From NCBI GenBank assembly GCA_001820095.1, contig MHOO01000003.1:987-64986 (forward strand): DNA of 64,000 nucleotides, read 5' to 3'. Numbering within the stretch: the stretch's first letter is position 1; every line of letters begins with the position of its first letter. The translations under genes were made by a program, and so were the position numbers. The notes below the pieces were generated by a model. The model was given only the letters and a program-made list of their open reading frames with translations. It was not told the origin of the DNA and searched no databases. This document shows, one piece after another, positions 3,822 to 35,384 of the stretch. This DNA is from Candidatus Staskawiczbacteria bacterium RIFCSPHIGHO2_01_FULL_39_25. GTDB taxonomy: Bacteria > Patescibacteriota > Minisyncoccia > Minisyncoccales > Staskawiczbacteraceae.

Positions 3822-4292
3822 ATGCGAAGGGCCTATAAAAAACACAAAGTTGCCCCGGACACCTTATACCAAGACGTACAGGTTGCCCAATTGATCAACA
3901 AGGTGATGACCCAGGGGAAAAAGTCAACCGCACAAAAAATTGTGTACATGGCTTTTGATGCCATAAAACAAAAAACCCAAAAAGAGCCCTTGGAGGTTTT
4001 CAAGCAAGCGGTTGAAAATGCTTCTCCCGTATTAGAGGTAAAGCCAAAGAGGATCGGGGGAGCCACGTATCAGGTACCTATGGAGGTGCGGCAGGAACGG
4101 AGGATCTTTTTATCGTTAAAATGGATTATTGACGGAGCAAGGTCTGGAAAAGGCAAATCAATGGCAGAAAAGCTTAGCCAGGAGATCATGAACGTAGCCA
4201 ACAACGAAGGCATGGCAATGAAACGGAAAAACGATATGCATAGAATGGCAGAGGCAAACAAGGCTTTTGCTCATTTTGCGCGCTCTCGCTAG
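3822..4292 (+). CDS. rpsG: 30S ribosomal protein S7
   Basis: 156 aa; [15 protein letters not shown]...AFAHFAR. Confidence 0.97.
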
Positions 4293-4294
4293 AA

Positions 4295-4402
4295 CGTGAA
4301 TTCAGTATCTTGTATCTAGTAGCTAGAATGGAATTTTGAATACAGAATTCAGGATTCTTTTATTCTATTCTAGCTTCCAGCTGCTAGCTCCTAGATTCAA
4401 AT
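4295..4402. repeat. MITE-like palindromic element, family B, copy 1
   Basis: Starts ACGTGAAT just after the rpsG stop. Arms are 7-nt units (GTATCTT/GTAGCTA versus TAGCTTC/TAGATTC). Confidence 0.85.
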
Positions 4403-6480: not shown

Positions 6481-6532
6481 TCATTGACTAATTTTTAGAT
6501 ATATAATACAATTAAAACATTAATAAAAACTT

Positions 6533-6662
6533 AACGTGAATCTGGCAGCTAGAAGCTTGAATCTTGAATAGAATACAGAATTCTGAATAATCGTGGCAAA
6601 GCCTATATTCTGAATTCAATATTCCATTCAAGCTACTAGATACTCTATTCTAGATTCTCACA
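6533..6662. repeat. MITE-like palindromic element, family B, copy 2
   Basis: ACGTGAATCTGG...TAGATTCTCAC; imperfect palindrome between fusA and tuf. Confidence 0.85.
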
Positions 6663-6666
6663 AACT

Positions 6667-7868: not shown

Positions 7869-8252
7869 GTGATGATGGCTCTTAAAAAAGCAACCATAAA
7901 ACCAAAAAAGGCAAAAGCAGAATCTCCGAAAGAGGAAGCGGTAGTTGTTATGCCCAAGCTTAGGATTAAGCTTAAGGCTTACGACCATAAGATTATAGAT
8001 AGTTCGGTCAGGCAGATTATTGATATTGCCAACCGCAGCGGCGTAGAAGTAGTTGGACCGGTGCCCTTGCCAACCGAAATATTAAAATACACGGTGAACC
8101 GATCTACTTTTGTCCATAAAAATGCCAGAGAGCAGTTTGAAATGAGGGTTCACAAAAGAGTCATTGACATCATAAATCCTAATCCTGAAATTATTGAAGC
8201 ATTGCGGGATTTAAACTTGCCATCCGGGGTTGACATCACCATCAAAATTTAA
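7869..8252 (+). CDS. rpsJ: 30S ribosomal protein S10, with a Lys-rich N-terminal extension if the GTG 7869 / ATG 7872 start is real
   Basis: RIKLKAYDHKIIDSS...VHKRVIDI. An alternative start at M28 (7950) would give a canonical length. Confidence 0.93.
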   Translation: MMMALKKATIKPKKAKAESPKEEAVVVMPKLRIKLKAYDHKIIDSSVRQIIDIANRSGVEVVGPVPLPTEILKYTVNRSTFVHKNAREQFEMRVHKRVIDIINPNPEIIEALRDLNLPSGVDITIKI

Positions 8253-8303
8253 TAGTATAGTTAAAATTAAACAATTGTTAACTTTTCCATGATATTTTTT
8301 GAT

Positions 8304-8363
8304 TCACCCGATCAAATAATTTTGCAAAGCAAAATTAGCGCAAGGCGCTATTTGACCGGGTAA
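8304..8363 (+). ncRNA. Three-helix structured element, family H, copy 1
   Basis: Outer stem acccgatcaaa/tttgaccgggt encloses hairpins attttgc-aaa-gcaaaat and tagcgc-aagg-gcgcta. The second copy at 37105 has the same architecture with different hairpin sequences. Confidence 0.6.
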
Positions 8364-8393
8364 AAATATTATAGAATAACAACATTGCCATTG

Positions 8394-8416
8394 AACTGGG
8401 CAATTGCCCAGTTTTT
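8394..8416 (+). terminator. Terminator-like stem-loop 15 nt upstream of the rplC start
   Basis: aactggg-caattg-cccagtt followed by ttttt. Confidence 0.45.
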
Positions 8417-8430
8417 CATTAGAAACAAAG

Positions 8431-9030
8431 ATGAAATTCATTTTAGGAAAAAAAATTGAAATGTCCCAGATGTTTGATGAAAAGGGAAAAGTAATCCCCG
8501 TAACTTTGATTTCAGCGGGGCCATGCGTAGTATTGCAGAAAAAAACCAAAGAAAAAGAAGGATACAATGCCCTGCAGGTGGGTTTTATAAAAATTGAAAA
8601 AAAGAGTAAGGTTAAGAAAACGATGAAGGGAAAAGAATATAGGTACATAAAAGAATTTTTAGTTATTAATGATCAATTATCCAAAAACGTTGGCGATGCA
8701 ATTAATCTTGCTGAATTTAAAGAAGGAGATAAGGTAAATATAGTGGGAATTTCCAAGGGAAAGGGGTTTCAAGGAGCAGTGAAAAGGCATGGGTTTTCAG
8801 GCAGGAATGCAACCCATGGCGCCAAGCACGAAGCCAGAACTGTCGGATCAATCGGGCAAAGGTTTCCTCAGCATACGATCAAAGGGAGAAGAATGCCAGG
8901 AAGGATGGGATACGAAAGGGTTACCGTAAAAAATTTAATAGTCGCAAAAATTGACGCAGAAAATAATATTTTGGCGTTGAAGGGAGCCGTACCGGGACAT
9001 AGAGGTACGTTGCTAGAGATTAGAGGATAG
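8431..9030 (+). CDS. rplC: 50S ribosomal protein L3
   Basis: MKFILGKKIEMSQMFDEKGKVIPVTLI...GFQGAVKRHGF. Confidence 0.95.
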   Translation: MKFILGKKIEMSQMFDEKGKVIPVTLISAGPCVVLQKKTKEKEGYNALQVGFIKIEKKSKVKKTMKGKEYRYIKEFLVINDQLSKNVGDAINLAEFKEGDKVNIVGISKGKGFQGAVKRHGFSGRNATHGAKHEARTVGSIGQRFPQHTIKGRRMPGRMGYERVTVKNLIVAKIDAENNILALKGAVPGHRGTLLEIRG

Positions 9031-9045
9031 GGCGCTTACGGAAGT

Positions 9046-9185
9046 CTTTTGCAATGATGTTAAAAGTACCGATAGTCGAAATTGCCAGCGCAATTTCGCT
9101 ATCTAAATTCTCGGCAGTTTGCGCCGCCAAAGGCGGCGACCATGCCAAACTGCCTGCGAAATTTACTTTTAACATCACTGCAAAA
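9046..9185 (+). ncRNA. 140-nt multi-helix structured element, family G, copy 1 (rplC-rplD spacer)
   Basis: P1 9046-9068/9163-9185 (23 bp). P2 is gatag/ctatc plus cgaaattgc-cagc-gcaatttcg. P3 is ggcagttt/aaactgcc enclosing cgccgcc-aaa-ggcggcg. Junction sequences are identical to the copy at 16276. Confidence 0.65.
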
Positions 9186-9246
9186 GTGAAAATCTTTTCC
9201 ATGCGCTAAAGTAAAATCTTTTATTAGTAATTAGAAATTTGCAGGC

Positions 9247-9888
9247 ATGAAATATCCAGTCTACAATCAAGAGGGCAAAGAGACGGGAGAAGTAAATCTT
9301 CCTAAGGACATATTTGAGGTTCCCTTGAACGCTGATTTGGTGCACCAAGTGGCAATTTCACAGACAGCCAATAAGAGGCAGGTTTCAGCCCATACGAAAG
9401 ACCGGGGTGCAGTACGCGGCGGAGGCAGGAAGCCTTGGAGGCAAAAAGGAACTGGGAGAGCACGAGTAGGGTCTATTAGGTCTCCATTATGGAGGGGCGG
9501 AGGAGTTACGGGAGGCCCAACCAATGAGAAAGTTTATGAAAAGACTATTCCTACTAAAATGAGAAGGAAGGCATTATTTATGGCGCTTAGCCAGAAAGCG
9601 AAAAATAACTTACTGATAGTATTAGATAAATTAGAGATGGAAAACCCAAAGACAAAAATGATGGTAGAAATCATTAAAAAGCTTCCCGGATCAAAAGAAA
9701 GCAGATTAATAACGGCATTGAACGGAGATAAGAAAGTGTTTTTATCAGCAAGGAATATTACAAAAACAAGGGTGGCAGAAGCAAGAAACTTGAATGTGGC
9801 AGATGTGTTAAATTATAAATATCTTATTGTGTCTAAAGACGGAATTAAGGATATAGAGAAGACTTTTGCAAGGCAAAAGTCTGAATAA
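9247..9888 (+). CDS. rplD: 50S ribosomal protein L4
   Basis: GGGRKPWRQKGTGRARVGSIRSPLWRGGG. Confidence 0.95.
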   Translation: MKYPVYNQEGKETGEVNLPKDIFEVPLNADLVHQVAISQTANKRQVSAHTKDRGAVRGGGRKPWRQKGTGRARVGSIRSPLWRGGGVTGGPTNEKVYEKTIPTKMRRKALFMALSQKAKNNLLIVLDKLEMENPKTKMMVEIIKKLPGSKESRLITALNGDKKVFLSARNITKTRVAEARNLNVADVLNYKYLIVSKDGIKDIEKTFARQKSE

Positions 9889-9966
9889 AGAATCTTGTAT
9901 TTGGAAGCTAGAATAAAAAACGATATAACATATTCAATCTTCAAGATACAAAATTCAAGATTCAAA
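9889..9966. repeat. MITE-like palindromic element, family B, copy 3 (short)
   Basis: agaatcttgtatttggaagctagaat...attcaatcttcaagatacaaaattcaagattc. Confidence 0.8.
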
Positions 9967-9969
9967 CAA

Positions 9970-10407
9970 ATGGCTTTATTTGATTTTTTAAAAAGAAAAA
10001 AGGAAGTAGAGAAAGCGAAAGAAAAAATAAAAAAAGAACCGGAAAAAGGGGCGGATAAGGCTTTGGTTGCAAAGCCAAAGAAAGTCGTGGAATCAGACGC
10101 AGAAAAACACGAGAACAAAAAAAATGTAAAGGGATTTTCCTATAGTATTGTAAAAGAACCTCATATTTCTGAAAAATCAACCTTATTAGCAGAAGGCAAT
10201 AAATATACTTTTAAAGTGGATGGCAATGCCAATAAGCCAGAAATAAAAAGATCAGTTGAAGGAATTTATGGGGTAAATGTCTTGGGGGTAAGTATCATAA
10301 AAATTCCAAAAAAGAAAAGAAGGCTAGGAAAAACCGAAGGGTTCAGAAAGGGGTACAGAAAGGCGGTAGTCACTATTAAGAAAGGGCAAAAGATAGAGGT
10401 ATTTTAA
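9970..10407 (+). CDS. rplW: 50S ribosomal protein L23 with a Lys/Glu-rich N-terminal extension
   Basis: IVKEPHISEKSTLL...YTFKVDGNANKPEIKRSVEGIYGV. ATG 9970 is chosen because the upstream ORF part lies in repeat B3. Confidence 0.9.
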   Translation: MALFDFLKRKKEVEKAKEKIKKEPEKGADKALVAKPKKVVESDAEKHENKKNVKGFSYSIVKEPHISEKSTLLAEGNKYTFKVDGNANKPEIKRSVEGIYGVNVLGVSIIKIPKKKRRLGKTEGFRKGYRKAVVTIKKGQKIEVF

Positions 10408-10425
10408 ATTAGTAATTAGTAATTC

Positions 10426-11274
10426 ATGAAGACGTATAAACCAACTACACCAAGCCGAAGAGGAATGACTGGAATTGACTTTTCTTTGCTTACCAAGAAA
10501 AAAGCAGAAAAGAGCCTTTTGAAATATGTCAGAAGAAGCGTTGGAAGGTCCAAAGCATCAGGAAGAATTACCGTACGACATAAAGGCGGAGGGGTAAAAA
10601 AACTCTATAGGATTATAGAATTCAGCCAGAGCATTATGGATGCGCCCGCGAAGGTGATTGCCTTAGAATATGACCCTAATAGGACCGCATTTATTGCACT
10701 AATAGAATATCCTTCAACAGTTTCGGGAAAAGTCCCAAAAAGACAATATATTATCGCCCCGCAGGATTTAAAAGTTGGCGATAGTATTATTTTTTCAGAT
10801 AAGGCGCTTCTTACGGCTGGAAACAGAATGAAGCTAAAAAATATATCGGTGGGGACTGCAGTGTATAACATTGAATTAGAGCCGGGCAGGGGAGGAATTT
10901 TAGTAAGATCAGCGGGGTCAGCAGCCCAAGTATTAGCGCAAGAGCACAGCTTTACCAACTTGAAAATGCCTTCGGGCGAAGTAAGAAGAGTAAAAGATGA
11001 ATGTTTTGCTTCTATAGGAATGGTTTCAAATCCAGAAAACAGATTTTATACGGTAGGAAAGGCAGGCAAATCAAGGCTAAAGGGAAGAAGGCCGCATGTG
11101 AGGGGAAGTGCCATGAATCCTGTTGACCATCCGCACGGAGGGGGCGAGGGCCGCCAGCCCATTGGATTAAAACATCCAAAAACTCCATGGGGTAAACCAG
11201 CATTAGGAGTGAAAACAAGATATCGAAAAAAGTGGACAAACAAATATATTATCAGCCGCAGGAAAAAGAAGTAA
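10426..11274 (+). CDS. rplB: 50S ribosomal protein L2
   Basis: RGSAMNPVDHPHGGGEGR. Confidence 0.97.
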   Translation: MKTYKPTTPSRRGMTGIDFSLLTKKKAEKSLLKYVRRSVGRSKASGRITVRHKGGGVKKLYRIIEFSQSIMDAPAKVIALEYDPNRTAFIALIEYPSTVSGKVPKRQYIIAPQDLKVGDSIIFSDKALLTAGNRMKLKNISVGTAVYNIELEPGRGGILVRSAGSAAQVLAQEHSFTNLKMPSGEVRRVKDECFASIGMVSNPENRFYTVGKAGKSRLKGRRPHVRGSAMNPVDHPHGGGEGRQPIGLKHPKTPWGKPALGVKTRYRKKWTNKYIISRRKKK

Positions 11275-11276
11275 CG

Positions 11277-11392
11277 TGAATATAGAATCTGGTATCTGGA
11301 AGCTAGAATGGAATAAAGAATAGTGAATGTGTATGAAATTCTAAATTCCAAATTCAATTCAAGCTTCAAGATACTAAATTCAAGATTCAAAA
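11277..11392. repeat. MITE-like palindromic element, family B, copy 4
   Basis: CGTGAATATAGAATCTGGTATCTGG...CAAGATACTAAATTCAAGATTCAAA. Confidence 0.85.
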
Positions 11393-11394
11393 CA

Positions 11395-11727
11395 ATGAGC
11401 AGGAGTTTAAAAAAAGGTCCGTTTGTGGATCAAAAATTAATAGAGAAGGTCTTAAAGGTAAGGAAAGAAGAAAAGGTTATTATTAAGACTTGGGCACGAT
11501 ATTCAACTATTTCTCCTGAAATGGTAGGGTTTACCTTTGGCGTGCATAATGGGAAGGAATTTGTTCCGGTATATGTAGGAGAGGATATGGTGGGGCACAA
11601 GTTAGGAGAATTTGCTCCTTCTACCAAGTTTTCAAGGCATGGAGGACGAATGCAGAAAGAGTTAGAGCAAAGATCTGAACAAGCCACCGCGGTAAAAACA
11701 GAAGCAGTAACAAAACCAGCAAAATAA
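11395..11727 (+). CDS. rpsS: 30S ribosomal protein S19 (with C-terminal extension)
   Basis: [12 protein letters not shown]...[13 protein letters not shown]. Confidence 0.95.
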
Positions 11728-11808
11728 CAATTGACAATTGACAATTGACAATTGACAACGTTTTCTAAAATTCGTTGGTCAAATGTTAAATGTCAAAGGT
11801 CAAATGTA
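11728..11808. repeat. Heptamer-array hairpin, family A, (ACAATTG)n / (GTCAAAT)n, copy 1
   Basis: Begins at the nucleotide after the rpsS TAA. Four ACAATTG units, an acg...cgt loop, then a GTCAAAT-type right arm. Confidence 0.9.
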
Positions 11809-11811
11809 GTA

Positions 11812-12291
11812 ATGGAAGTAAAAGTTTCATTGAACAATTTAAGAACGGCGCCACGAAAGTCACGGGAAGTGGTTGATTTAATACGGAATAAAAATGTGGC
11901 ACAAGCTAGGAGCCTCCTTGAGTTTACGGTTAGAAGATCAGCAGAACCTATACTAAAGCTTTTAAATAGCGCGGCAGCTTCGGCAGTACATGATTTTAAA
12001 TTAGAAGAATCTAATTTATACATTTCTAAAGTAACCGTAGATGAGGGGCCGAAATTAAAAAGATGGCATCCTATGTCCCGAGGCAGAGCATATCCTATTA
12101 TCAAAAGAACGTCGCATATTACTCTGATATTGTCAGAGAAATCCGAAGACGGGAGTTTCGGCAGAGCCGAAAACTCTCGCGTCTCGCAAGCACGAAATCC
12201 GAAATCCGAAACCGCCCCAACATTAAAGATTGTTAAAAAAAGCAAGCCAAATCTAAAATCTAAAACCAAGAAAATTAAAAAAAATAAATAA
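11812..12291 (+). CDS. rplV: 50S ribosomal protein L22 with a C-terminal extension of about 50 aa that reads through a family C repeat arm
   Basis: MEVKVSLNNLRTAPRKSREVVDLIR...RTSHITLILSEK core, then SEDGSFGRAENSRVSQARNPKSE... encoded by repeat sequence. Confidence 0.92.
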   Translation: MEVKVSLNNLRTAPRKSREVVDLIRNKNVAQARSLLEFTVRRSAEPILKLLNSAAASAVHDFKLEESNLYISKVTVDEGPKLKRWHPMSRGRAYPIIKRTSHITLILSEKSEDGSFGRAENSRVSQARNPKSETAPTLKIVKKSKPNLKSKTKKIKKNK

Positions 12292-12352
12292 AATTCAAAA
12301 TATGTTTCGAATTTCGATATTCGGATTTCGAATTTCTTTTGCAAAGCAAAAG
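12137..12352. repeat. Heptamer-array hairpin element, family C, copy 2 (the left arm lies inside the rplV ORF)
   Basis: gcacgaaatccgaaatccgaaac (12189-12211) is complementary to gtttcgaatttcgatattcggatttcgaatttc. It ends in the mini-hairpin cttttgc-aaa-gcaaaag just before the rpsC ATG. Confidence 0.85.
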
Positions 12353-12354
12353 CT

Positions 12355-13029
12355 ATGACTCACAAGGTACATCCAAAAGCATTTAGAATAAAAGGAATGG
12401 AGGATTTCAATATCCGCGGTTTTTATGGCAATAAAATGCCTCAGTATTTAGAGGAAGACTTTTTAATTAAGGATTTTCTAAGGGATAAATTATCGGAAGC
12501 GTCGGTTGCAAATATAGAAATAGAGCATTCTGCAAGTAAATTGAATATTATTATTGAAACAGCAAGGCCAGGGCTGATTATAGGGCGAGGAGGAGAAGGA
12601 GTAGAAATATTAAAGAAAGCCATAGAGCAGAAATTAAAAAATTTGAGAAAAACAAGCATTGGGGCTGCGTTAAAGTCTCAGGTGGGGCAAGTAAAAATAG
12701 ATATTAAAGAAATTAAAAACCCGTGGATTTCTGCGATGCTGGTTGCCCAGATGGCTGCTCAGCAAATTGAAAAAAGGATTCCTTTCAGGCAAGTATTAAA
12801 AAGAAGCATAGAGCGGGTGATGCAGAATAAAGAAGTGAAAGGCATAAAAATGGAGGTCTCAGGAAGATTAAACGGCATTGAAATTGCACGAAAAGAATGG
12901 TTAAAGCAAGGCAGAATGCCCCTGCAAACCATACGGGCAGATATTGATTATGCCCAAACGGAAGCGTATTGCACCTATGGAGCCATTGGGGTAAAAGTAT
13001 GGCTATATAAAGGAGAAAAGTTTGAATAA
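12355..13029 (+). CDS. rpsC: 30S ribosomal protein S3
   Basis: KVHPKAFRI...RPGLIIGRGGEG...SGRLNGIEIAR. Confidence 0.96.
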   Translation: MTHKVHPKAFRIKGMEDFNIRGFYGNKMPQYLEEDFLIKDFLRDKLSEASVANIEIEHSASKLNIIIETARPGLIIGRGGEGVEILKKAIEQKLKNLRKTSIGAALKSQVGQVKIDIKEIKNPWISAMLVAQMAAQQIEKRIPFRQVLKRSIERVMQNKEVKGIKMEVSGRLNGIEIARKEWLKQGRMPLQTIRADIDYAQTEAYCTYGAIGVKVWLYKGEKFE

Positions 13030-13110
13030 CAATTGACAATTGACAATTGACAATTGACAACGGTGCATTTAGCTCGTTGGTCAAATGTTAAATGTTAAAA
13101 GTCAAATGTA
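13030..13110. repeat. Heptamer-array hairpin, family A, copy 2
   Basis: TAA|CAATTGACAATTGACAATTGACAATTGACAACG...GGTCAAATGTTAAATGTTAAAAGTCAAATG. Confidence 0.9.
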
Positions 13111-13124
13111 TAAGCATGAGCTTA

Positions 13125-13532
13125 ATGATGCCGAAAAAAGTAAAACACCGAAAGTGGCATAAGGGAAAGACTAAAGGCGTGGAAACAAGAGCAACGGAAT
13201 TGAATTTTGGTAGTTTTGGCTTAAAGGCAATGGGGACTAAATGGATAACCGCCCGCCAAATTGAATCAGCTCGGCGTTACATTATCAGATACATGAAAAA
13301 GGGAGGCAAGTTATGGGTAAGGATTTTCCCAGACAAGCCGGTAACTTCAAAAGGGGAAGAAGTGCCGTTGGGAGGAGGCAAAGGGGCGGTTCACCATTAT
13401 GTATACCCTATAAAACCAGGAAGAATGATTTTTGAAGTGGATGGATTAAAAGAGGAGGTGGCCAGGGAGGCCTTAGTGGGAGCCAGCATCAAGTTGCCAA
13501 TTAAGACAAAATTTGTTAAAAGAGAGAATTAA
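13125..13532 (+). CDS. rplP: 50S ribosomal protein L16
   Basis: MMPKKVKHRKWHKG...ITARQIESARR. The upstream ATGs lie in the repeat arm. Confidence 0.95.
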   Translation: MMPKKVKHRKWHKGKTKGVETRATELNFGSFGLKAMGTKWITARQIESARRYIIRYMKKGGKLWVRIFPDKPVTSKGEEVPLGGGKGAVHHYVYPIKPGRMIFEVDGLKEEVAREALVGASIKLPIKTKFVKREN

Positions 13533-13613
13533 CAAATTTTGTCCTTAAGACTAATTTGTTAAAAGAGAGAATTAACAAATTTTGTCCTTAAGACTAATTT
13601 GTTAAAAGAGAGC
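13511..13613. repeat. 43-bp tandem repeat, 2.4 copies; the first copy is the 3' end of rplP
   Basis: atttgttaaaagagagaattaacaaattttgtccttaagacta starts at 13511, 13554 and (partial) 13597. Each unit contains the 10-bp hairpin aatttgttaa/ttaacaaatt. Confidence 0.95.
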
Positions 13614-13721
13614 AGTAGGATAGTCTATAAAGCTTCTGCGTAGTTTAGCGTCAGTTTAGCGGAGACTCCGCAAAACCAACGCGAAACATAACGCAAAACA
13701 GACGCGAAAGAATTTACAAAA
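13614..13721. repeat. Imperfect hairpin of GCGT/ACGC-containing short units (rplP-rpmC spacer)
   Basis: tctgcgtagtttagcgtcagtttagcgga opposed to tccgcaaaaccaacgcgaaacataacgcaaaacagacgcga. Confidence 0.7.
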
Positions 13722-13913
13722 ATGAAAATTGACGAATTAAGGAAAAAAGATAAAAAAGAATTAGAAAAATCGGTACAAGACTTACAAAAAAAGTTAAGTG
13801 ATGTTAGGTTTAAATTTTCTTCAAATAAGTTAAAAAATGTAAAAGAAATTGCCCAAACAAAAAAAGAAATCGCAAGGATATTAACTATTATTAACGAGAA
13901 AAATTACCAATGA
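13722..13913 (+). CDS. rpmC: 50S ribosomal protein L29
   Basis: 63 aa; MKIDELRKKDKKELEKSVQDLQKKL..., at the operon position between L16 and S17. Confidence 0.9.
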   Translation: MKIDELRKKDKKELEKSVQDLQKKLSDVRFKFSSNKLKNVKEIAQTKKEIARILTIINEKNYQ

Positions 13914-14146
13914 GCAAGAAGAAATTAACAGGAATTGTGGTCTCTGATAAAATGCAAAAAACTGCTGTGGTTAAGGTAGAAAGAATTAAAGAACACCCTA
14001 AATATAAAAGAAGGTATAAAATCCATACCAAGTATAAGGCCCACGATGAAAATAAAGAATATAAAGTGGGAGATAAAGTGGTGATTGAGGAAACCGCGCC
14101 AATTAGTAAAGATAAAAAGTGGAAAGTAATTTCGAAAAACAATTGA
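13910..14146 (+). CDS. rpsQ: 30S ribosomal protein S17
   Basis: KKLTGIVVSDKMQKTAVVKVER...KYKAHDENKEYKVGDKVVIEE. The TGA stop lies inside the first unit of repeat A3. Confidence 0.93.
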   Translation: MSKKKLTGIVVSDKMQKTAVVKVERIKEHPKYKRRYKIHTKYKAHDENKEYKVGDKVVIEETAPISKDKKWKVISKNN

Positions 14147-14225
14147 CAATTGACAATTGACAATTGACAACGTTTTTAGCAAAAATTCGTTGGTTAAATG
14201 TCAAATGTCACATGTCAAATGTCAG
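14140..14225. repeat. Heptamer-array hairpin, family A, copy 3
   Basis: caattgacaattgacaattgacaattgacaacg...ggttaaatgtcaaatgtcacatgtcaaatgtca. Confidence 0.9.
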
Positions 14226-14228
14226 GTT

Positions 14229-14597
14229 ATGATACAGCCAAGGTCAATGTTAAAAGTTGCAGATAATAGCGGAGCAAAAATAATCCAGTGCATTAACGTG
14301 CCTGGCGGAACAAGGAAACGCTATGCCCAAATAGGAGATATTATTGTGGGGGCTGTGAAAAAAGCAGAGCCAAGAAAATTGGTAAAGAAGCATGAGGTGG
14401 TAAAAGCAGTTATTGTACGGCAAAGGAAAGAAATAAGAAGAATAGATGGTTCTTATATACGATTTGATGATAATGCCGTAGTAGTATTAGGAGAGGGAAA
14501 GTTGCCTAAGGGAGGAAGAGTATTTGGCCCCGTAGCAAAAGAGGTCAAAGATAAAGGTTTTGATAAAATAGCCATGATGGCAAGTGAGTTACTATAA
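14229..14597 (+). CDS. rplN: 50S ribosomal protein L14
   Basis: [17 protein letters not shown]...IRFDDNAVV. Confidence 0.96.
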
Positions 14598-14599
14598 AT

Positions 14600-14917
14600 A
14601 TGAAGGTAAAAAAAGGTGACAATGTATTAATAATTTCAGGCAAGGATAAGGGCAGGACTGCAAAGATCTTAAGATCTCTTCCAAAAGAGAGGATGATTTT
14701 AGTTGAAGGAATAAATTTGAAGAGCAAGCACGTTAGGCCGAAAAAACAGGGAGAAAAAGGGCAGGTAGTTAAGGTTCCCGCCTCAATCGATGTGTCAGAT
14801 GTGAAATTTATCTGTCCGAAATGCGGAAAAGCCGCAAGGCTTGGATATAAGATAGAAAGTTCACAAGACAGTATGAAAAAATTTAGAATTTGCAAAAAGT
14901 GCAATTCAGAAGTGTAA
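14600..14917 (+). CDS. rplX: 50S ribosomal protein L24 with a C-terminal CxxC...CxxC zinc-ribbon segment
   Basis: MKVKKGDNVLIISGKDKG... then CPKCG...CKKC. Confidence 0.92.
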   Translation: MKVKKGDNVLIISGKDKGRTAKILRSLPKERMILVEGINLKSKHVRPKKQGEKGQVVKVPASIDVSDVKFICPKCGKAARLGYKIESSQDSMKKFRICKKCNSEV

Positions 14918-14921
14918 AAAT

Positions 14922-15482
14922 ATGCAGAAATTAAAAGAAAAATATAATAAAGAAGTAGTGCCTTTGATGATGGAGAAATTCGGTTATAAAAATCCGATGG
15001 CGGTTCCTAAAATCACCAAAGTCACCCTTAATACTTCTTTTGGCAAGGAGATTGTAAATAAAACTTCCGGCGAACGTGATAAAATGCATGCTTTAGTATT
15101 GCAGGATATGGGTTTGATTGCAGGACAAAAGCCCCGATTGGTAAAATCAAAGAAATCAATTGCTGGATTCAAACTTCGTGAAAGTTTGGAAATTGCTGCG
15201 ATGGTAACCTTAAGGAAAGGCAGGATGTGGGATTTTTTAGAAAGGTTAATTTACCTTTCTTTGCCAAAGTCGCGAGATTTTAAAGGGCTTGAACCAAGAG
15301 GGGTAGATAATGGCGGCAATCTTAACATTGGATTTCGCGAACACATAAACTTTCCCGAGATTTTTACTGAAAAAGAAAAAACAATTCTTGGGCTGGAAGT
15401 TACGGTTTCTACTAATGCTAAGAAAAGGGAAGAAGGGTTAGAATTATTCAGGTTAATGGGATTCCCAATTAAAGAAAAGTAA
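14922..15482 (+). CDS. rplE: 50S ribosomal protein L5
   Basis: LKEKYNKEVVP...NPMAVPKITKVTLN...GNLNIGFREHINFPE. Confidence 0.96.
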   Translation: MQKLKEKYNKEVVPLMMEKFGYKNPMAVPKITKVTLNTSFGKEIVNKTSGERDKMHALVLQDMGLIAGQKPRLVKSKKSIAGFKLRESLEIAAMVTLRKGRMWDFLERLIYLSLPKSRDFKGLEPRGVDNGGNLNIGFREHINFPEIFTEKEKTILGLEVTVSTNAKKREEGLELFRLMGFPIKEK

Positions 15483-15566
15483 CAATTGACAATTGACAAT
15501 TAACAATTGACAACGTTTCGTAAGATTCATTATGTCAAATGTTAAATGTCACATGTTAAATGTCAG
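15483..15566. repeat. Heptamer-array hairpin, family A, copy 4
   Basis: TAA|CAATTGACAATTGACAATTAACAATTGACAACG...TATGTCAAATGTTAAATGTCACATGTTAAATGTCA. Confidence 0.9.
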
Positions 15567-15571
15567 GTAAC

Positions 15572-15757
15572 GTGGCTAAAACATCACAAATAGCAAGTGC
15601 AAAAAAGAAACCAAAATATTCTTCCAGATTAGTAAGACGCTGTTTTAAGTGCGGAAGGAGAAGGGGATTTATGAGGGCCTTTGGATTGTGCAGAATATGT
15701 TTTCGGGAATTAGCTAACAAAGGGGAGATACCGGGAATTAAGAAATCAAGCTGGTAA
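15572..15757 (+). CDS. rpsN: 30S ribosomal protein S14, zinc-binding type Z (61 aa from GTG 15572; ATG 15560 lies in the repeat arm)
   Basis: (M)[60 protein letters not shown]. Confidence 0.93.
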
Positions 15758-15759
15758 AA

Positions 15760-15870
15760 ACGTGAATCTAGAATCTGGTATCTTGTAGCTGGAATACCTG
15801 TCTGCGCAGGCAGGAAATAAAGGAATAACGAATTCAAGCTTCAAGATTCAAAATTCAAGATTCTCACTAA
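15760..15870. repeat. MITE-like palindromic element, family B, copy 5, with a GC-rich apical palindrome
   Basis: ACGTGAATCTAGAATCTGGTATCTTG...; apex cctgtctgcgcaggcagg at 15797-15814. Confidence 0.85.
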
Positions 15871-15872
15871 AA

Positions 15873-16262
15873 ATGACTGATCCAATCACGGACATGTTAA
15901 ATCAAATAAGGAACGCAGAAGCTGTCCAAAAGACAGAGGTTTTGCTGCCTTTCTCAAAATTAAAGAATGAGATTGCTAATATACTATCCCAGAATGGATT
16001 TATTGGAGAAGCAAAAAAAATTGCAAAAGGAAAGAATAAAACGCTGAAAATACATTTAAAGTATGAAAATGGGGTGCCGGCAATAGAGGGAGCCAAAAGA
16101 GTTTCAAAGCCCGGCCAACGGATTTACGTAAAATCAACTGATATTAAGAAAGTAAGGGGAGGGTTTGGTGTTGCAATTATTTCAACCCCAAAGGGATTAA
16201 TGACCAATAGCCAGGCAAGAAAGGCAAAACTAGGAGGAGAAGTTCTTTTAGAAGTTTGGTAG
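15873..16262 (+). CDS. rpsH: 30S ribosomal protein S8
   Basis: MTDPITDMLNQIRNA...GVAIISTPKGLMT. Confidence 0.96.
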   Translation: MTDPITDMLNQIRNAEAVQKTEVLLPFSKLKNEIANILSQNGFIGEAKKIAKGKNKTLKIHLKYENGVPAIEGAKRVSKPGQRIYVKSTDIKKVRGGFGVAIISTPKGLMTNSQARKAKLGGEVLLEVW

Positions 16263-16275
16263 GGCGCTTATAGGG

Positions 16276-16415
16276 CTTTTGCAGCGATTTTAAAAGTACC
16301 GATAGTCGTCCCGACCAGCGTCGGGACGCTATCTAAATTCTCGGCAGTTTATTCCGCTGAAGCGGAAACCATGCTAAACTGCCTGCGAAATTTACTTTTA
16401 AAATCGTTGCAAAAG
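16276..16415 (+). ncRNA. 140-nt multi-helix structured element, family G, copy 2 (rpsH-rplF spacer)
   Basis: Same helices and junctions as 9046-9185, but the hairpins are replaced with compensation: cgtcccgac-cagc-gtcgggacg and ttccgc-tgaa-gcggaa. Confidence 0.65.
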
Positions 16416-16500
16416 AAAAGATATTTCAGTTGTTAAGAATTTTGTAAAAAAAGAGCGCCGATGGATTTTCGACGGTAGCTAGGAAGAGTAGGTTTGAGAG

Positions 16501-16529
16501 TTGACGAAGCACTAAAAATAATATATAAT
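16501..16529 (+). promoter_or_regulatory. Candidate internal sigma70-type promoter upstream of rplF
   Basis: TTGACG (16501-16506), 17-nt spacer, TATAAT (16524-16529). Confidence 0.5.
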
Positions 16530-16585
16530 AATCAATCTATAAAGTCAATTTTTAAATCATAATTCATAAATCGTAAATCACGCAA

Positions 16586-17137
16586 ATGAGCCGAATCGGT
16601 AAAAAATTAATTGAAATTCCTTCTGCTGTAAAAGTGGAATTTGACGGCCAGAATGTGAAAGTTTCAGGGCCAAAAGGGGAATTAAAAACCATAATCCATC
16701 GCGATATTAAAGCGGAAGCGAAAGATGGCAAGATTTTTGTATCCCCTAAAAGCAAGGATGCATCTAATAAGGTGAGAGGATTATGGGGCCTGTACCGGGC
16801 ATTAATTTTTAATATGATACAAGGGGTGGAAAAAGGCTTTGAAAAGAAACTGGAAATTGAGGGTGTTGGTTATAAAGCGGCAGTGCAGGGAGATGAATTG
16901 GTGTTGAACCTTGGATTTGTGAATCCGGTTAAAATTAAAAAGCCCGAAGGAATTACCTTTGCTGTTGAAAAAAATCTTATTACTATTTCAGGAATTAATA
17001 AAGAAGCTGTTGGACAAATTGCCGCAGAAATACGGGCAACTAAAAAAGCAGAGCCATATAAAGGCAAAGGCATTAAATACCAGGGAGAAAGGATTAGGAG
17101 AAAAGAAGGAAAGAAGGTAGTCGCCGCCAAGAAATAG
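16586..17137 (+). CDS. rplF: 50S ribosomal protein L6
   Basis: MSRIGKKLIEIPSAVKVEFDGQNVKVSGPKGEL. Confidence 0.96.
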   Translation: MSRIGKKLIEIPSAVKVEFDGQNVKVSGPKGELKTIIHRDIKAEAKDGKIFVSPKSKDASNKVRGLWGLYRALIFNMIQGVEKGFEKKLEIEGVGYKAAVQGDELVLNLGFVNPVKIKKPEGITFAVEKNLITISGINKEAVGQIAAEIRATKKAEPYKGKGIKYQGERIRRKEGKKVVAAKK

Positions 17138-17248
17138 GAATCTAGATTCTTGTATCTTGAAGCTAGAATACAAAAAAACAAGAGTAGGATTTAGAAATTC
17201 AATATTCAAAATTCTATTCAAGATACCAGATACAAGACTCAAGATTCA
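17138..17248. repeat. MITE-like palindromic element, family B, copy 6
   Basis: ggaatctagattcttgtatcttgaagctagaat...attcaagataccagatacaagactcaagattc. Confidence 0.85.
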
Positions 17249-17256
17249 TTTTGACT

Positions 17257-17598
17257 ATGTTAAAGAAACAACTAAAAAGACAAAGAATACATACCAGGAT
17301 ACGGGCAAAAATTTCAGGTACCAAAGAGCGTCCAAGGCTTTCTGTCTTTAAGTCGGGTAAGCACATGTATGCCCAATTAATAGATGATGAACATGGCAAG
17401 GTATTGGCGGCAGTTTCAGATATAAAGATTAAGAAAGGTACTAAAGTTGGCCATGCTATTGAAGTGGGAAAATTAATTGCAAAAGAAGGGTTAGCCAAAA
17501 AGATTGAAAAAGTAGTATTTGATAGAGGAGGGTTTGTGTTCCATGGAAGGGTAAAAGCAGTTGCTGAAGGTGCCCGCGAAGGCGGTTTGAAATTTTAA
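17257..17598 (+). CDS. rplR: 50S ribosomal protein L18
   Basis: [31 protein letters not shown]...[14 protein letters not shown]. Confidence 0.94.
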
Positions 17599-17709: not shown

Positions 17710-18252
17710 ATGGCAGAAGATACAACAATAAAAAAACCACAGGAATTAGAAAAAGCTTCTCAAAAAGATGATGGCTTTAGGCCGGTCAGAAAGTTTGGTT
17801 CGCGTCCAGGTGCCCCAAAAGATGATTTTGAAACTAAGCTTTTGGATTTAGCAAGGGTTACCAGAGTTACCGGTGGCGGAAAAAGGATGAGTTTTAGGGC
17901 GGTTGTCGTAGCAGGAGATAAAAAAAGCAAAATTGGCATTGGCATAGATAAGGGGAAAGACGTATCCCAGGCAATAGAAAAAGCAACGAGCAGGGCTAAG
18001 AAAAATTTGATTACGGTGGTTATCGTAAATGGAACGATTCCCCACCAAGTGCAGGCAAAAGTAGGACCTGCGGTAATACTATTAAAACCCCAGAGAAAAG
18101 GCAGGGGCCTGGTGGCCGGGGGAGCTGTAAGGGTTATTTGTGACCTAGCAGGCATAAAAAACGTTTCTTCAAAAATTCTTTCTGGATCAAAAAATAAGCT
18201 TAACAATGCGCGGGCAACCATGGAAGCATTGCGCAAGCTAAAAGCTCGCTAA
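17710..18252 (+). CDS. rpsE: 30S ribosomal protein S5
   Basis: RVTRVTGGGKRMSFRAVVVAGD...GRGLVAGGAVR. Confidence 0.95.
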   Translation: MAEDTTIKKPQELEKASQKDDGFRPVRKFGSRPGAPKDDFETKLLDLARVTRVTGGGKRMSFRAVVVAGDKKSKIGIGIDKGKDVSQAIEKATSRAKKNLITVVIVNGTIPHQVQAKVGPAVILLKPQRKGRGLVAGGAVRVICDLAGIKNVSSKILSGSKNKLNNARATMEALRKLKAR

Positions 18253-18330
18253 CAATTGACCATTAACATGTGACCATTGACTGACGACGTCGCGATTGGT
18301 CAATTGTTAATTGTCAAATGTCAATTGTCA
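18253..18330. repeat. Heptamer-array hairpin, family A variant (CCATTGA units), copy 5; it fills the position where rpmD (L30) normally sits
   Basis: TAA|CAATTGACCATTAACATGTGACCATTGAC...GGTCAATTGTTAATTGTCAAATGTCAATTGTCA. Confidence 0.85.
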
Positions 18331-18334
18331 TATT

Positions 18335-18766
18335 ATGCAGATACATCAATTACAACCTATCCATAGCTCCAAGAACAGGAAACGGGTTGGCCGAGGAGGC
18401 AAGAAAGGCACGTATTCTGGAAAAGGAGGGAAGGGCCAAACCGCAAGAGCTGGCAGAAAACTGGCGCCTATTATCAGGGAGCTTATTAAAAGGTATCCAA
18501 AGCTAAAAGGATATCGCAGGTTTGTTTTGGAAAATAATTCAACGGTAGTAAATCTAGACATGCTTAATAAGCATTTCAAAGATGGAGAAGTTGTAAATCC
18601 AGCAAATTTGATTACAAAGGGAATAGTACATATGATAAAAGGCAAAGTTGGAGAGGTGAAGATTCTTGGAAAGGGCGTGTTGGATAAAAAGCTAACTATT
18701 GAAAACTGCAAGGTTTCAGAAACTGCAAAAAAAGCCATTGAAAAAGCGGGCGGCACCGTGAAATAA
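18335..18766 (+). CDS. rplO: 50S ribosomal protein L15
   Basis: MQIHQLQPIHSSKNRKRVGRGGKKGTYSGKGGKGQ. Confidence 0.94.
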   Translation: MQIHQLQPIHSSKNRKRVGRGGKKGTYSGKGGKGQTARAGRKLAPIIRELIKRYPKLKGYRRFVLENNSTVVNLDMLNKHFKDGEVVNPANLITKGIVHMIKGKVGEVKILGKGVLDKKLTIENCKVSETAKKAIEKAGGTVK

Positions 18767-18843
18767 CAATTTACCATTGACATTTGACCATTGACAGCAA
18801 CTTGCGGTTGGTCAATTGTTAATTGTTAAATGTTAATTGTTAA
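18766..18843. repeat. Heptamer-array hairpin, family A variant, copy 6
   Basis: TAA|CAATTTACCATTGACATTTGACCATTGACAGC...GGTCAATTGTTAATTGTTAAATGTTAATTGTTAA. Confidence 0.85.
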
Positions 18844-18846
18844 ACT

Positions 18847-20299: not shown

Positions 20300-21013
20300 A
20301 TGTCAAAGCAAGTTATTATTTTATTCGGGCCGCCGGGGGCGGGAAAAGGCACGCAGTCAGAGCTCTTATCTGAAAAGATGGGGCTGTATTTATTTGAGAC
20401 CAGCAAAATTCTAGAAAAGGAGTTTAAAAAAGCAGAAGATATGCCAGGAGATTCCCCTGAACGGTTTGTAGAAATTGAAGGCGAAAAATTTGATGTATTA
20501 AATGAAAAAGAAATTTGGAAAAAAGGGGAATTATGCAGTCCGCCGTGGGTAACCTATCTTACGATGAAAGAGTTTAAACGATTACATGATGATGGCGATA
20601 ATTTAATTATTGCGGGATCTCCAAGAACCGTTTACGAAGCCGAACGGGAGATGCCTCTTTTGGCTGAATTATATGGCAAGGAACATATAAAAATAGTACT
20701 AATAGAAATTTCAGCGGATGTAACGGTATTCAGGAACACGCATAGGAAGATTTGCGAGTTAATGCGCCACTCTATTTTATTTAATAAAGAAACCGAAACG
20801 CTGACGATTTGCCCTTTAGACGGTTCTAAATTAATGAAACGCAAAGATCTAGATGATCCCGAAACCATAAAAACAAGGCTTGAACAATATAAAGCAAGAA
20901 CCCTGCCGTTATTCAATTATTTTAAAGAGAATAATTTTAACGTCCATAAAATCAATGGAGAGGGAAGTGTGGCAAAGGTGCATGAAGAAATACTGCGAAT
21001 AGTGGAAGTGTGA
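20300..21013 (+). CDS. adk: Adenylate kinase (long form)
   Basis: MSKQVIILFGPPGAGKGTQ P-loop. The TGA stop is part of the GTGAAT terminus of repeat B7. Confidence 0.85.
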   Translation: MSKQVIILFGPPGAGKGTQSELLSEKMGLYLFETSKILEKEFKKAEDMPGDSPERFVEIEGEKFDVLNEKEIWKKGELCSPPWVTYLTMKEFKRLHDDGDNLIIAGSPRTVYEAEREMPLLAELYGKEHIKIVLIEISADVTVFRNTHRKICELMRHSILFNKETETLTICPLDGSKLMKRKDLDDPETIKTRLEQYKARTLPLFNYFKENNFNVHKINGEGSVAKVHEEILRIVEV

Positions 21014-21146: not shown

Positions 21147-21151
21147 TTTAG

Positions 21152-26847: not shown

Positions 26848-26850
26848 CCA

Positions 26851-26933: not shown

Positions 26934-26938
26934 ATATT

Positions 26939-27140: not shown

Positions 27141-27142
27141 CT

Positions 27143-35382: not shown

Positions 35383-35384
35383 AA

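Follow-up and report, generated by a model that had tools for sequence, protein, structure and literature searches.

A dispersed family of three-way-junction elements placed behind genes of Patescibacteria

The window analysed here, a 64,000-nt stretch of a Candidatus Staskawiczbacteria contig, has two copies of one structured element, in the spacers that follow rplC (copy A) and rpsH (copy B). The first-pass annotation had placed copy B at 16276-16415 (+), which is correct, and had ended copy A one base too early, since it runs over 9046-9186 (141 nt). The parts of both copies and their surroundings are:

9028..9030 (+): TAG stop codon of rplC (L3; ORF 8404..9030); the long form of the element begins at the next base
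9031..9045 (+): copy A, 5' outer extension of the 'long form' (GGCGC, a UUAC loop, GGAAG-U)
9046..9068 (+): copy A, 5' strand of P1, 23 nt
9069..9070 (+): copy A, J1/2, 'CC', invariant among the 72 aligned copies, an invariance qualified by its falling within the search pattern GTACCGATAG
9071..9103 (+): copy A, P2, GAUAG/CUAUC and then 9 bp of CGAAAUUGC/GCAAUUUCG, with the CAGC loop at 9086-9089
9104..9112 (+): copy A, J2/3, UAAAUUCUC
9113..9154 (+): copy A, P3, outer helix GGCAGUUU/AAACUGCC, inner hairpin 9121-9138, bulge ACCAUGC 9139-9145
9155..9163 (+): copy A, J3/1, UGCGAAAUU, near-invariant and outside the metagenome search pattern
9164..9186 (+): copy A, 3' strand of P1, 23 nt
9187..9207 (+): copy A, 3' outer extension (bulge UGAAAAU, then CUUUUCC, AU and GCGCU)
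16260..16262 (+): TAG stop codon of rpsH (S8; ORF 15873..16262)
16263..16275 (+): copy B, 5' outer extension GGCGCUUAUAGGG, with a degenerate 3' partner
16276..16415 (+): copy B, three-way junction, P1 16276-16298 with 16393-16415, CC at 16299-16300
16301-16333 (+): copy B, P2, CAGC loop at 16316-16319
16334-16342 and 16384-16392 (+): copy B, J2/3 and J3/1
16343-16383 (+): copy B, P3, ACCAUGC bulge at 16368-16374
16501..16529 (+): sigma-70-type promoter-like site TTGACG-17-TATAAT between copy B and rplF, outside the element

The shared architecture that had been described is correct, as read from the sequences and folds of both copies: a 23-bp closing helix P1, a P2 with a GAUAG/CUAUC base and a 9-bp hairpin with a CAGC loop, and a P3 that surrounds a second hairpin and has ACCAUGC as its 3' bulge. 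Copies A and B form one common P1-closed three-way junction with MFE of -70.1 and -73.2 kcal/mol and fold z-scores of -9.6 and -10.3, respectively, and 0 of 200 shuffles equal either stability. The junction strands are indeed identical in the two copies, and their 22- and 26-nt strings occur within the window at copies A and B only, with 0 chance occurrences expected. TAG followed by GGCGCTTA precedes both copies as claimed, but the distance from stop codon to P1, said to be equal, is 15 nt in A and 13 nt in B. Both hairpins have been swapped for unrelated sequence with full pairing kept, and the two compensated P1 pairs named earlier (U-A to C-G and G-C to U-A) are present, along with an extra difference, an A·C mismatch in copy A that is G·U in copy B. 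The hairpins differ at essentially all positions and P1 and the junctions are 87–100% identical. To judge from the sequences, the hairpin difference looks like a swap of modules between family variants rather than stepwise compensatory evolution. Genuine stepwise covariation is visible across the family only, not between A and B.

Outside P1, the 5' outer extension of copy A (9031..9045) pairs with 9196-9207 in the fold of 9026-9224 and has its homologue in the outer helix of the 16S-intron copies (see below). The GURAAAAU and YUUUUCC stretches of its 3' extension are also seen in L035, L086 and L078. A pairing of GGCGCUU with AGAGCGCC around copy B is probably coincidental, as AGAGCGCC is kept in L109, which is without this element. 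The promoter-like site at 16501..16529 has 11 of 12 consensus matches, the best within 8000-17500, and its TATAAT -10-like string is found in the empty L111 spacer and in L109 as well; the site suggests that copy B may lie in the 3' UTR of rpsH. Beyond A and B, the window has no further copies or distant relatives detectable with covariance model R1 at E up to 10 (copy B scores 142 bits), and no other GCTCGG...CCTCGC closing pairs.

The first-pass annotation had described a two-copy element behind rplC and rpsH. The copies are real but not limited to these genes: they belong to a large dispersed family found by unrelated genes. Pattern scans and the covariance model recovered ∼100 copies from Patescibacteria MAGs and from groundwater and sediment metagenomes, with element sizes of ∼140–190 nt. 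Among 185,579 species genomes scanned with a junction-only pattern, 3 other Patescibacteria MAGs gave 4 loci, a P2-side pattern matched on 93 metagenome contigs, and R1 gave ∼100 forward hits, a sampling that is biased by the exact-match search patterns. Some loci are dense in copies, with 3–4 co-oriented ones within 10–14 kb in each of L095, L088, L093 and L042. Viral contigs contain no matches to the 3' pattern, and blastn found nothing in plasmids (72,556) and phage records (50,697); a viral, plasmid or phage origin is rejected on the lack of matches in those sets. The failure to match the element with any known RNA family was borne out by a search of Rfam 15 on both strands: the gathering thresholds yielded only 4 tRNAs in the whole window, and E up to 10 yielded only two chance snoRNA hits of 14 bits in 8900-9350. 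No description of this element was found in the literature consulted. We conclude that the family is new and previously undescribed, belongs to Patescibacteria (CPR) and has no Rfam match.

Covariation on more copies had been named as a test of the fold, and it is strongly borne out by 72 further distinct copies. MAFFT alignment A2, built from these 72 copies without fitting to the structure, gives 43 pairs in RNAalifold, of which 29 show compensatory changes. Paired cells amount to 97.1%, versus 79.3% in shuffled alignments and 29–48% with partners slid; double compensatory changes affect 29 of 45 pairs (607 doubly changed cells), and 0 of 500 shuffles match the observed pairing values. The P2 hairpin pairs covary family-wide, and in diverged copies covariation reaches even the 'invariant' P2 base, which becomes GACCC/GGGUC, and one junction pair. 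Here the AA of J2/3 pairs with the UU of J3/1, and UUC and C lengthen P3; column pair 89-182 goes from A-U to C-G and pair 88-183 from A-U to G·U (L042:1156, L093). Family-wide, P1 has 25–40 bp and usually ends in GCUCGG/CCUCGC with a U·C/C·U internal loop, so that both ends carry CUCG on one strand and form no terminal inverted repeat at the double-stranded level. P3 stacks on P1 and has the ACCAUGC bulge and a hairpin of variable size, and the P2 and P3 hairpins come in discrete recurring types. The unpaired bases of junction, loop and bulge are almost invariant across the family; ACCAUGC is at least 90% conserved though it lies outside the metagenome search pattern, a P2-side motif. The alignment shows purifying selection both on the fold and on the core's unpaired bases, of which no fewer than 25 fall outside the search patterns. 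The earlier claim of selection on an RNA fold thus stands as far as a compensated fold is concerned, whereas the choice between RNA and single-stranded DNA is not settled by covariation.

Copies lie in transcribed spacers, typically beginning 0–3 nt after the upstream stop codon and ending 10–60 nt before the next start. The stop codon is ≤3 nt away in 29 of 54 copies and ≤9 nt away in 37 of 54, and the orientation is mostly sense: 61 copies share the strand of their upstream gene, against 5 that do not. Since the stop spacing varies (0–4 nt), all three stop codons are used and the flanks show no repeat, we reject TA as a target. Flanking genes encode S7, S8, S9, L3, L14, L23, S19, EF-G, SecY, SecA, Adk, enolase, RRF, GrpE, FtsK, DHFR, ThyX, GalT and others; r-proteins make up 8 of 43 distinct upstream genes, in addition to EF-G, RRF (twice), SecA and SecY. 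Three copies lie in 16S genes, within the S788 group I intron, at its 5' end and directly behind the 5' splice site. The element itself is not a group I intron, as Intron_gpI matches only the sequence 3' of it (L035, L086) and nothing in the window. Other copies are found before a tRNA, between divergent genes, antisense between genes (L011) and upstream of a divergent promoter region (L101). In the window, almost every spacer of the S10-spc operon has a hairpin element of ∼100–190 nt. Many downstream genes are without a visible Shine-Dalgarno sequence, and the idea that P1 places an upstream Shine-Dalgarno beside the downstream AUG is unsupported, the spacing through the helix being ∼19 nt or more.

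We compared the junctions of the window in four relatives with S8 identity of 82–85%. The L3–L4 spacer is empty in L109 (11 nt) and L111 (28 nt) and has another structured insert in L108; the S8–L6 spacer is empty in L111 (88 nt) and is occupied by another three-way-junction element in L109, whose R1 match is a copy after SecY instead. Distant lineages have the element at the junctions of the window, after L3 (L059) and after S8 (L107, L042). Cores with ≤3 differences in ∼165 nt occur with at least 3 unrelated flanks. Copies are truncated in L014 and in L022, where what resembled an ORF within the P3 loop is the next gene cutting the copy off, a nested insert of ∼90 nt lies inside the P3 hairpin in L019, and 11 contigs end within the element. 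At some junctions, e.g. after rpsI, the element is present in at least 6 lineages with coding identity of only ∼75–84%, each time with an intact fold. There is turnover among junctions: the family is multi-copy and present or absent at orthologous sites, as an interspersed repeat is. This variable presence, together with the unrelated neighbours, excludes a gene-specific regulatory RNA. An r-protein leader or riboswitch is likewise rejected, as the neighbours are mutually unrelated, copies lie in a 16S intron and the anchor is the upstream stop rather than the downstream start. No autonomous version (5' half, ORF, 3' half) was found in ∼620 kb of loci, and no transposase, reverse transcriptase or other partner gene among the loci. 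Target-site duplications were absent from the flanks of the 72 copies and from the comparisons of filled and empty sites, in which the empty sites come from diverged relatives, so that short duplications may have escaped notice.

Taken as a whole, the element is best explained, with a rough probability of 0.55, as a dispersed, non-coding, mobile or recombining structured repeat family comparable to REP, ERIC or MIRU. It would spread by mobility or recombination, as a module that passes through a single-stranded intermediate (RNA or lagging-strand DNA), with the conserved junction serving as recognition surface for a copying or processing machinery. By clamping the ends, P1 would leave the insert structurally insulated and tolerated in essential operons and in the intron loop. 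In mRNA the element would most likely behave like other intercistronic hairpin repeats, as a barrier shielding the preceding cistron's 3' end; besides, it may serve as an entry site for RNase III, of which the 25–40 bp of P1 are a plausible substrate, or a pause site for terminating ribosomes, as for stop-proximal REPs. Several observations speak against a repeat. The loci show no partner gene, autonomous version or target-site duplication. Retention at junctions such as that after rpsI agrees with long-term keeping, possibly for a host function, no less than with selfish turnover. The exact conservation of many unpaired bases across lineages is less usual in a MITE than in a functional RNA, and tolerance alone leaves the tight anchoring to stop codons unexplained.

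A possible, though not probable, alternative is that the element is a host-beneficial cis-acting 'punctuation' RNA of operons, with a junction recognised by a host factor (e.g. RNase III on P1, or an RNA-binding protein) that processes or stabilises segments of polycistronic mRNA or modulates termination and re-initiation, copies having been recruited to highly expressed operons. This would agree with the sense bias (61 to 5), the start 0–3 nt past the stop codon in about half of the copies, the over-representation of translation and secretion operons, the invariant junction bases beside covarying helices, the persistence of same-junction copies across lineages and the long hairpin elements in almost every S10-spc spacer of the window, and a precedent is given by REPs less than 16 nt from a stop codon, which are reported to stall ribosomes and lower translation (PMC12306157). 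It does not fit the same junctions that are without the element in close relatives, nor sites where punctuation makes no sense, such as antisense (L011), upstream of a divergent promoter region (L101) or inside an intron, and neither RNase III nor exonuclease barriers need an invariant junction. We consider it unlikely that the core is a new Patescibacteria-specific catalytic or protein-recruiting RNA, that is, a self-cleaving or self-ligating 'punctuation' ribozyme or an RNA-level mobile element. The narrower proposal of a new class of small self-cleaving or self-ligating ribozyme, or of an RNA-level mobile element using such chemistry, with the core as active site, is very improbable. Sequence-variable helices around a strictly conserved junction, bulge and loop are what small ribozymes have, multi-copy sense insertion and the location in a group I intron loop recall twin-ribozyme arrangements, and no known family matches. 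However, the core has no likeness to the hammerhead, which we reject because CUGANGA is absent from CC, UAAAUUCUC and UGCGAAAUU, GAA is likewise absent from the junction strands, the register of GAAA misfits P1 and Rfam gives no hit; other three-way-junction ribozymes were likewise rejected on a reading of the junction strands; models of twister, twister-sister, pistol, hatchet and HDV-like ribozymes do not match at E up to 10. A pseudoknot between the CAGC loop and the ACCAUGC bulge was also rejected, as variants of the two are not compensated by each other, and cleavage at many r-protein operon junctions would be costly.

It might also be argued that the element is a DNA-level palindrome with no selected RNA role, in which changes arise by template switching, hairpin-templated repair and module exchange and the relevant fold is that of single-stranded DNA, e.g. 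of the lagging-strand template, as in IS200/IS605 ends or attC. Template switching in palindromes can create and maintain hairpins that look compensated without selection on RNA (PMC8794818), whole hairpins have been exchanged between A and B with the remainder near-identical, and P2 and P3 hairpins are of discrete recurring types. The complementary strand is the more stable one in 65 of 72 copies with RNA parameters and in 70 of 72 with DNA parameters, and in it U·C/C·U becomes tandem G·A and UUCG becomes CGAA. Copies on a contig are co-oriented, as expected of strand-specific single-stranded-DNA transposition where genes follow replication, and GC skew is positive over the whole window. Against this, G·U exceeds A·C on the sense (+) strand (73 versus 43), covariation extends to long-range P1 pairs 100–140 nt apart, the conserved mismatch loops remain without being corrected to perfect palindromes, the R-box consensus of attC is absent, and no HUH/tyrosine transposase or integrase was seen at the loci. 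As a self-standing account we find it very improbable. It should be noted that folding energy and the G·U/A·C count point to opposite strands, and that this account is one of a mechanism of spread and overlaps with the mobile or recombining repeat that we favour.

With ∼100 copies, a covariance model that works and a fold, of RNA or DNA, that is well supported and can be aligned, the family is a ready candidate for inclusion in Rfam. Its conserved core must be read by some machinery, and its placement after stop codons is a striking rule. Repeated expansion of spacers in the most essential operons is unexpected in the tiny genomes of Patescibacteria, hosts that cannot be cultured alone. The element has a link with group I introns in the 16S genes of CPR, accounts for some of the contig breaks in CPR assemblies and could mark operon architecture and strain turnover in CPR metagenomes. 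It is also a concrete substrate for studies of RNase III processing, of ribosome pausing at stop codons and of new ribozyme chemistry. If the core were catalytic or recruiting, the element would be one that inserts just behind stop codons and within intron loops, and it would explain some of the so far puzzling non-intron insertions and enlarged spacers of CPR genomes.

Several known systems share features with the family. Like integron attC sites, the element comes right after the stop of the preceding ORF in fixed orientation, has structure conserved above sequence and a variable distal part; the functional form of attC is a folded single strand. Unlike attC, it is without the R''/R' core (RYYYAAC/GTTRRRY), has a branched fold and resides in housekeeping operons instead of cassettes, and no integrase was seen at the loci. 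RNase III excises intervening sequences of 23S rRNA via a long closing helix. The rRNA genes of CPR contain group I introns and other insertions (PMC11270868); three copies of the element lie at S788 in 16S genes, but most copies are in mRNA spacers and not in rRNA, and the element itself has no group I core. MITEs, such as Correia/NEMIS of Neisseria, which are processed by RNase III, are likewise short, non-autonomous, multi-copy and intergenic, with truncated and nested copies, and their termini, like those of the element, pair as a long helix in the transcript. Unlike in a MITE, the ends GCTCGG...CCTCGC break the perfect inverted repeat at the same two positions family-wide, the internal junction bases and not the termini alone are most conserved, and no target-site duplication or related autonomous IS was found among the examined loci.

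ERIC/IRU (∼127 bp, Enterobacteria) and mycobacterial MIRU are likewise interspersed repeats, ∼50–130 bp long, of intergenic operon regions that are transcribed. In RNA, ERIC folds as a long imperfect hairpin, which unlike the element is simple and occurs in either orientation. MIRUs were reportedly described by Supply et al. in 1997 as lying between cistrons in one orientation relative to transcription. They carry small ORFs overlapping the stop and start codons on either side, in contrast to the element, which has no conserved ORF because its helices change by compensatory substitution and copy B lacks the ATG of the internal ORF of copy A. A REP consists of a single GC-rich hairpin, ∼35 nt long with GTAG on its 5' side, and is mobilised by RAYT transposases, whereas the element is a three-way junction of 140–190 nt with an invariant unpaired core. 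GTAG is found at the element only sometimes and within the context of the upstream stop codon, which is not the REP/REPIN pattern, no RAYT was found among the examined loci and, unlike REPs, the element is restricted to Patescibacteria. REPs shield upstream mRNA from 3' exonucleases. The REP/BIME/REPIN sequences of Proteobacteria are likewise high-copy, non-coding, extragenic palindromic and transcribed in operons, and many REPs lie within a few nt of the upstream stop codon, with ribosome stalling reported (PMC12306157). Finally, REPs and the element alike form families within a genome that undergo turnover.

Our data fit the reading of the element found after rplC (L3) and rpsH (S8) as a dispersed, non-coding insertion element that depends on its structure. 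Its two copies in the window are:

9046-9186, + strand: copy A, after rplC, by direct reading
9031-9207, + strand: copy A in its long form, by outer pairing and bulge
16276-16415, + strand: copy B, after rpsH, by direct reading

Both fold as the first-pass annotation had proposed, as seen by direct reading, alignment and folding. A 23-bp helix P1 closes a three-way junction, P2 combines GAUAG/CUAUC with a 9-bp hairpin whose loop is CAGC, and P3 (GGCAGUUU/AAACUGCC) surrounds a second hairpin and has ACCAUGC as its 3' bulge. Minimum free energies of -70.1 (copy A) and -73.2 kcal/mol (copy B) lie about 10 SD under those of dinucleotide shuffles. Some details had to be corrected: copy A ends at 9186 rather than 9185, and the distance from the TAG stop to the start of P1, previously taken to be equal, is 15 nt in copy A and 13 nt in copy B. 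Both copies are of a 'long form' with ∼15 extra outer base pairs and a GURAAAAU bulge. Within the window the junction strings occur at these two copies only (0 expected by chance), as do matches of the covariance model R1. Two ORFs overlap copy A (51 aa, 9054-9209, + strand; 60 aa, 9020-9202, - strand), one of them annotated as a gene in a public assembly (L001 3155-3337); since the ATG is absent in copy B and helix substitutions are compensatory, both are almost certainly spurious.

A Candidatus Staskawiczbacteria MAG from the Rifle aquifer encodes an S8 protein identical to the window's. Searching 185,579 species genomes with the unpaired junction strings alone hit three other Patescibacteria MAGs, at four loci in total, and a second pattern, anchored solely on the P2 side, gave 93 metagenome contigs from groundwater and sediment. 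From 72 distinct full-length copies, aligned by MAFFT blind to structure (alignment A2), R1 was built; it finds ∼100 forward-strand copies in the loci, including diverged ones that the exact patterns overlooked. Because copies were sampled by exact match, GUACCGAUAG and CUAUCUAAAUUC look more invariant than they are. Several contigs hold 3–4 copies per 10–14 kb, co-oriented in every case, and 11 contigs terminate within the element, the assembly breakage expected of a repeat.

Both the fold and the core of the element are under selection. RNAalifold applied to A2 returns the proposed architecture, with double compensatory changes in 29 of 43 pairs. Counted over these pairs and two junction pairs (3,226 cells), standard pairs make up 97.1%, versus 79.3% when 3' partners are shuffled and 29–48% when they are slid by 1–3 columns; doubly changed cells number 607 (199 in shuffles), and none of 500 shuffles reached any observed pairing measure. 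The helices thus vary and stay paired over 72 copies, as had been claimed from two. The 3' half (ACCAUGC, CUGCGAAAUUUAC) is at least 90% conserved, though it lies outside the metagenome search pattern, and in diverged copies covariation reaches positions that the search patterns required to be constant: the P2 base GAUAG/CUAUC becomes GACCC/GGGUC in the copies L095:13867 and L038:41, and at the junction one A-U pair turns into C-G and the A-U pair beside it into G.U (L042:1156, L093). The latter changes indicate that AA of J2/3, the strand between P2 and P3, pairs with UU of J3/1, and that P3 stacks on P1.

P1 is closed in most members by GCUCGG/CCUCGC, a U.C/C.U 2x2 internal loop (A2 columns 15-16 with 205-206) flanked by G-C pairs, which a few copies (L039, L069) replace with Watson-Crick UU/AA. 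This loop, CUCG facing CUCG, is also seen in common variants of P2 (CGCCUCGUC/GACUCGGCG) and of the P3 hairpin (UUCUUCGC/GCUCAGAA), so that it is present in up to three arms. A subfamily (L029 4496-4710; L034; L065; L011 6265-6475) bears an extra outer helix of ∼15 bp, GGACUUUCGCGAUUG/CAAUCGCGUAAGUCC, around the standard element.

Between copies A and B the junction strands are the same, P1 is 87% identical, with both compensated pairs noted earlier and an A.C in copy A that is G.U in copy B, and both hairpins are exchanged for unrelated, still-pairing sequences. Across A2, the hairpin sequences come in a set of distinct types, each seen repeatedly. Judged from the sequences, the two copies differ by exchange of entire hairpin modules; the full compensation first reported is real, and in this pair it does not reflect gradual covariation. 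Hairpins can also arise and persist by template switching without RNA selection (PMC8794818). On the sense strand G.U outnumbers A.C (73 versus 43), whereas the complementary strand is the more stable fold in 65 of 72 copies, because there tandem G.A takes the place of U.C/C.U, and CGAA that of UUCG. Count and fold energy point to opposite strands, and the folded molecule may be RNA or DNA; genes on these contigs are strongly co-oriented, which makes the directions of transcription and replication inseparable here.

Copies show a clear sense bias: the upstream gene lies on the same strand in 61 cases and on the opposite strand in 5, and 45 copies stand between two co-directional genes. An upstream sense ORF could be recognised for 54 copies: the element begins no more than 3 nt from the stop codon of this ORF in 29 of them, and no more than 9 nt from it in 37. 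Each of the three stop codons is represented, and the next start codon follows at a broad spacing of 10 to >100 nt. Upstream genes are of many kinds, with a tendency towards highly expressed operons: S8 (three lineages), L3 (two), S7, S9, L14, L23 and S19; EF-G, SecY, SecA, Adk, RRF, GrpE and enolase; ATP synthase, FtsK, DHFR, ThyX and others. A role as gene-specific regulator is excluded by the data on dispersed copies. Only the L011 copy, of the subfamily with an extra outer helix, was found antisense to both neighbours. Some copies separate divergent genes, ahead of a CIRCE/hrcA promoter region (L101), and at L077 a tRNA begins 8 nt downstream. In three 16S rRNA genes a long-form copy starts precisely at the S788 insertion point (GGAUU|GGCG...), adjoining a group I intron core on its 5' side:

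L035, 554-951: S788 insertion
L086, 1275-1776: S788 insertion
L078, about 540-1290, - strand: S788 insertion

These insertions of ∼500–750 nt (GGATT|...|AGATACCC) comprise the long-form element and then the intron core. Past the element comes AGUCC, a candidate internal guide sequence; the element would then occupy the P1 loop of the intron.

The element turns over among junctions, as seen in the same operon of four relatives with S8 identity of 82–85%. The L3-L4 junction is empty in L109 (11 nt) and L111 (28 nt); in L108 it is filled by another structured insert, distantly related to the element. The S8-L6 junction is empty in L111 (88 nt) and carries in L109 another P1-closed three-way-junction element with a similar closing motif; in L109, R1 finds a copy after SecY instead. 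The same junctions are filled by this family in lineages whose L3 or S8 is merely 53–57% identical (after L3 in L059; after S8 in L107 and L042), and cores with no more than 3 differences in ∼165 nt have at least three unrelated flanks. Truncated copies exist (L022, L014), and one (L019) has a ∼90-nt insert nested in its P3 hairpin. Downstream of rpsI the element is retained in six lineages, with adjoining coding sequence mostly ∼75–84% identical (a few pairs align lower) and helices that differ at up to one third of positions with pairing intact. Persistence there and turnover elsewhere mean that the family both persists and moves. Contig L044 spans two sites, with the 5' flank of L042, the 3' flank of L026 and the element between, reflecting either inter-copy recombination or chimeric assembly at the repeat.

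The window holds other repeats as well. Family X consists of ∼100-nt hairpins, four ACAATTGAC units facing four GTCAAATGT units with single mismatches at a period of 6–7 bp; copies start at or just past stop codons of r-protein genes, with no clear strand preference. Family Y comprises imperfect hairpins of ∼110–150 nt (GAATCTGGTATCTGGAAGCTAGAATGGAAT ... ATTCAATTCAAGCTTCAAGATAC) with periodic mismatches.

Family X in the window: 11716-11816; 13018-13124; 14128-14231; 15471-15572; 18241-18337; 18755-18849; 26840-26941; 27044-27145; 37202-37298
Family Y in the window: 4289-4399; 6529-6663; 9874-9969; 11269-11394; 15755-15863; 17129-17253; 21003-21150; 35373-35497; 49999-50120

Together with the three-way-junction element they occupy nearly all S10-spc spacers in the window; the corresponding spacers measure 2–30 nt in L109 and L111. 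Further P1-closed branched elements (L109 10391-10540 and 14557-14745; L108 3910-4045; L095 12646-12845; L042 8384-8566) have interiors unlike those of our family and share some of its features (GC-UC-GG/CC-UC-GC-type closure, CCAGCG loop, ACCAUGC bulge, CUGCGAA), which suggests a superfamily of structured inserts adjoining stop codons. Within the spc operon, rplF is preceded by a near-consensus promoter-like site, TTGACG-17-TATAAT (16501-16529), and similar -10-like strings at the matching place (L111 10405-10425; L109 about 10950-10965) suggest an internal promoter after rpsH. An alanyl-tRNA synthetase gene call (L111 16697-18760) has an N-terminal match to PF05635 (23S_rRNA_IVP), the family of proteins that 23S rRNA intervening sequences encode.

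By our inference, a single-stranded intermediate mediates the spread or exchange of the element, with the conserved junction as the recognition surface for a putative machinery. P1, by clamping both ends, would make the insert tolerable in essential operons and in an intron loop. In mRNA, by analogy with other intercistronic hairpin repeats, it would be a barrier against 3' exonucleases. RNase III may also cleave it, or it may make the terminating ribosome pause, as with REPs, where pausing is reported within 15 nt of stop codons (PMC12306157).

As had been supposed, no known family accounts for the element: Rfam gave no match, whether gathering thresholds or E values up to 10 were used, plasmid, phage and viral collections gave none, and neither Rfam nor the searched literature, among it surveys on structured RNAs and on insertions and introns in CPR rRNA, describes it. 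We rate it as new among bacterial interspersed structured repeats. A catalytic or specific processing function of the core is unlikely; it would make the element categorically new. Nearest in kind are REP/BIME, ERIC, MIRU and RNA-folding MITEs. Unlike these, it shows no target duplication, its asymmetric ends make a double-stranded terminal inverted repeat impossible, and it combines a branched fold and a strictly conserved unpaired core with tight anchoring to stop codons.
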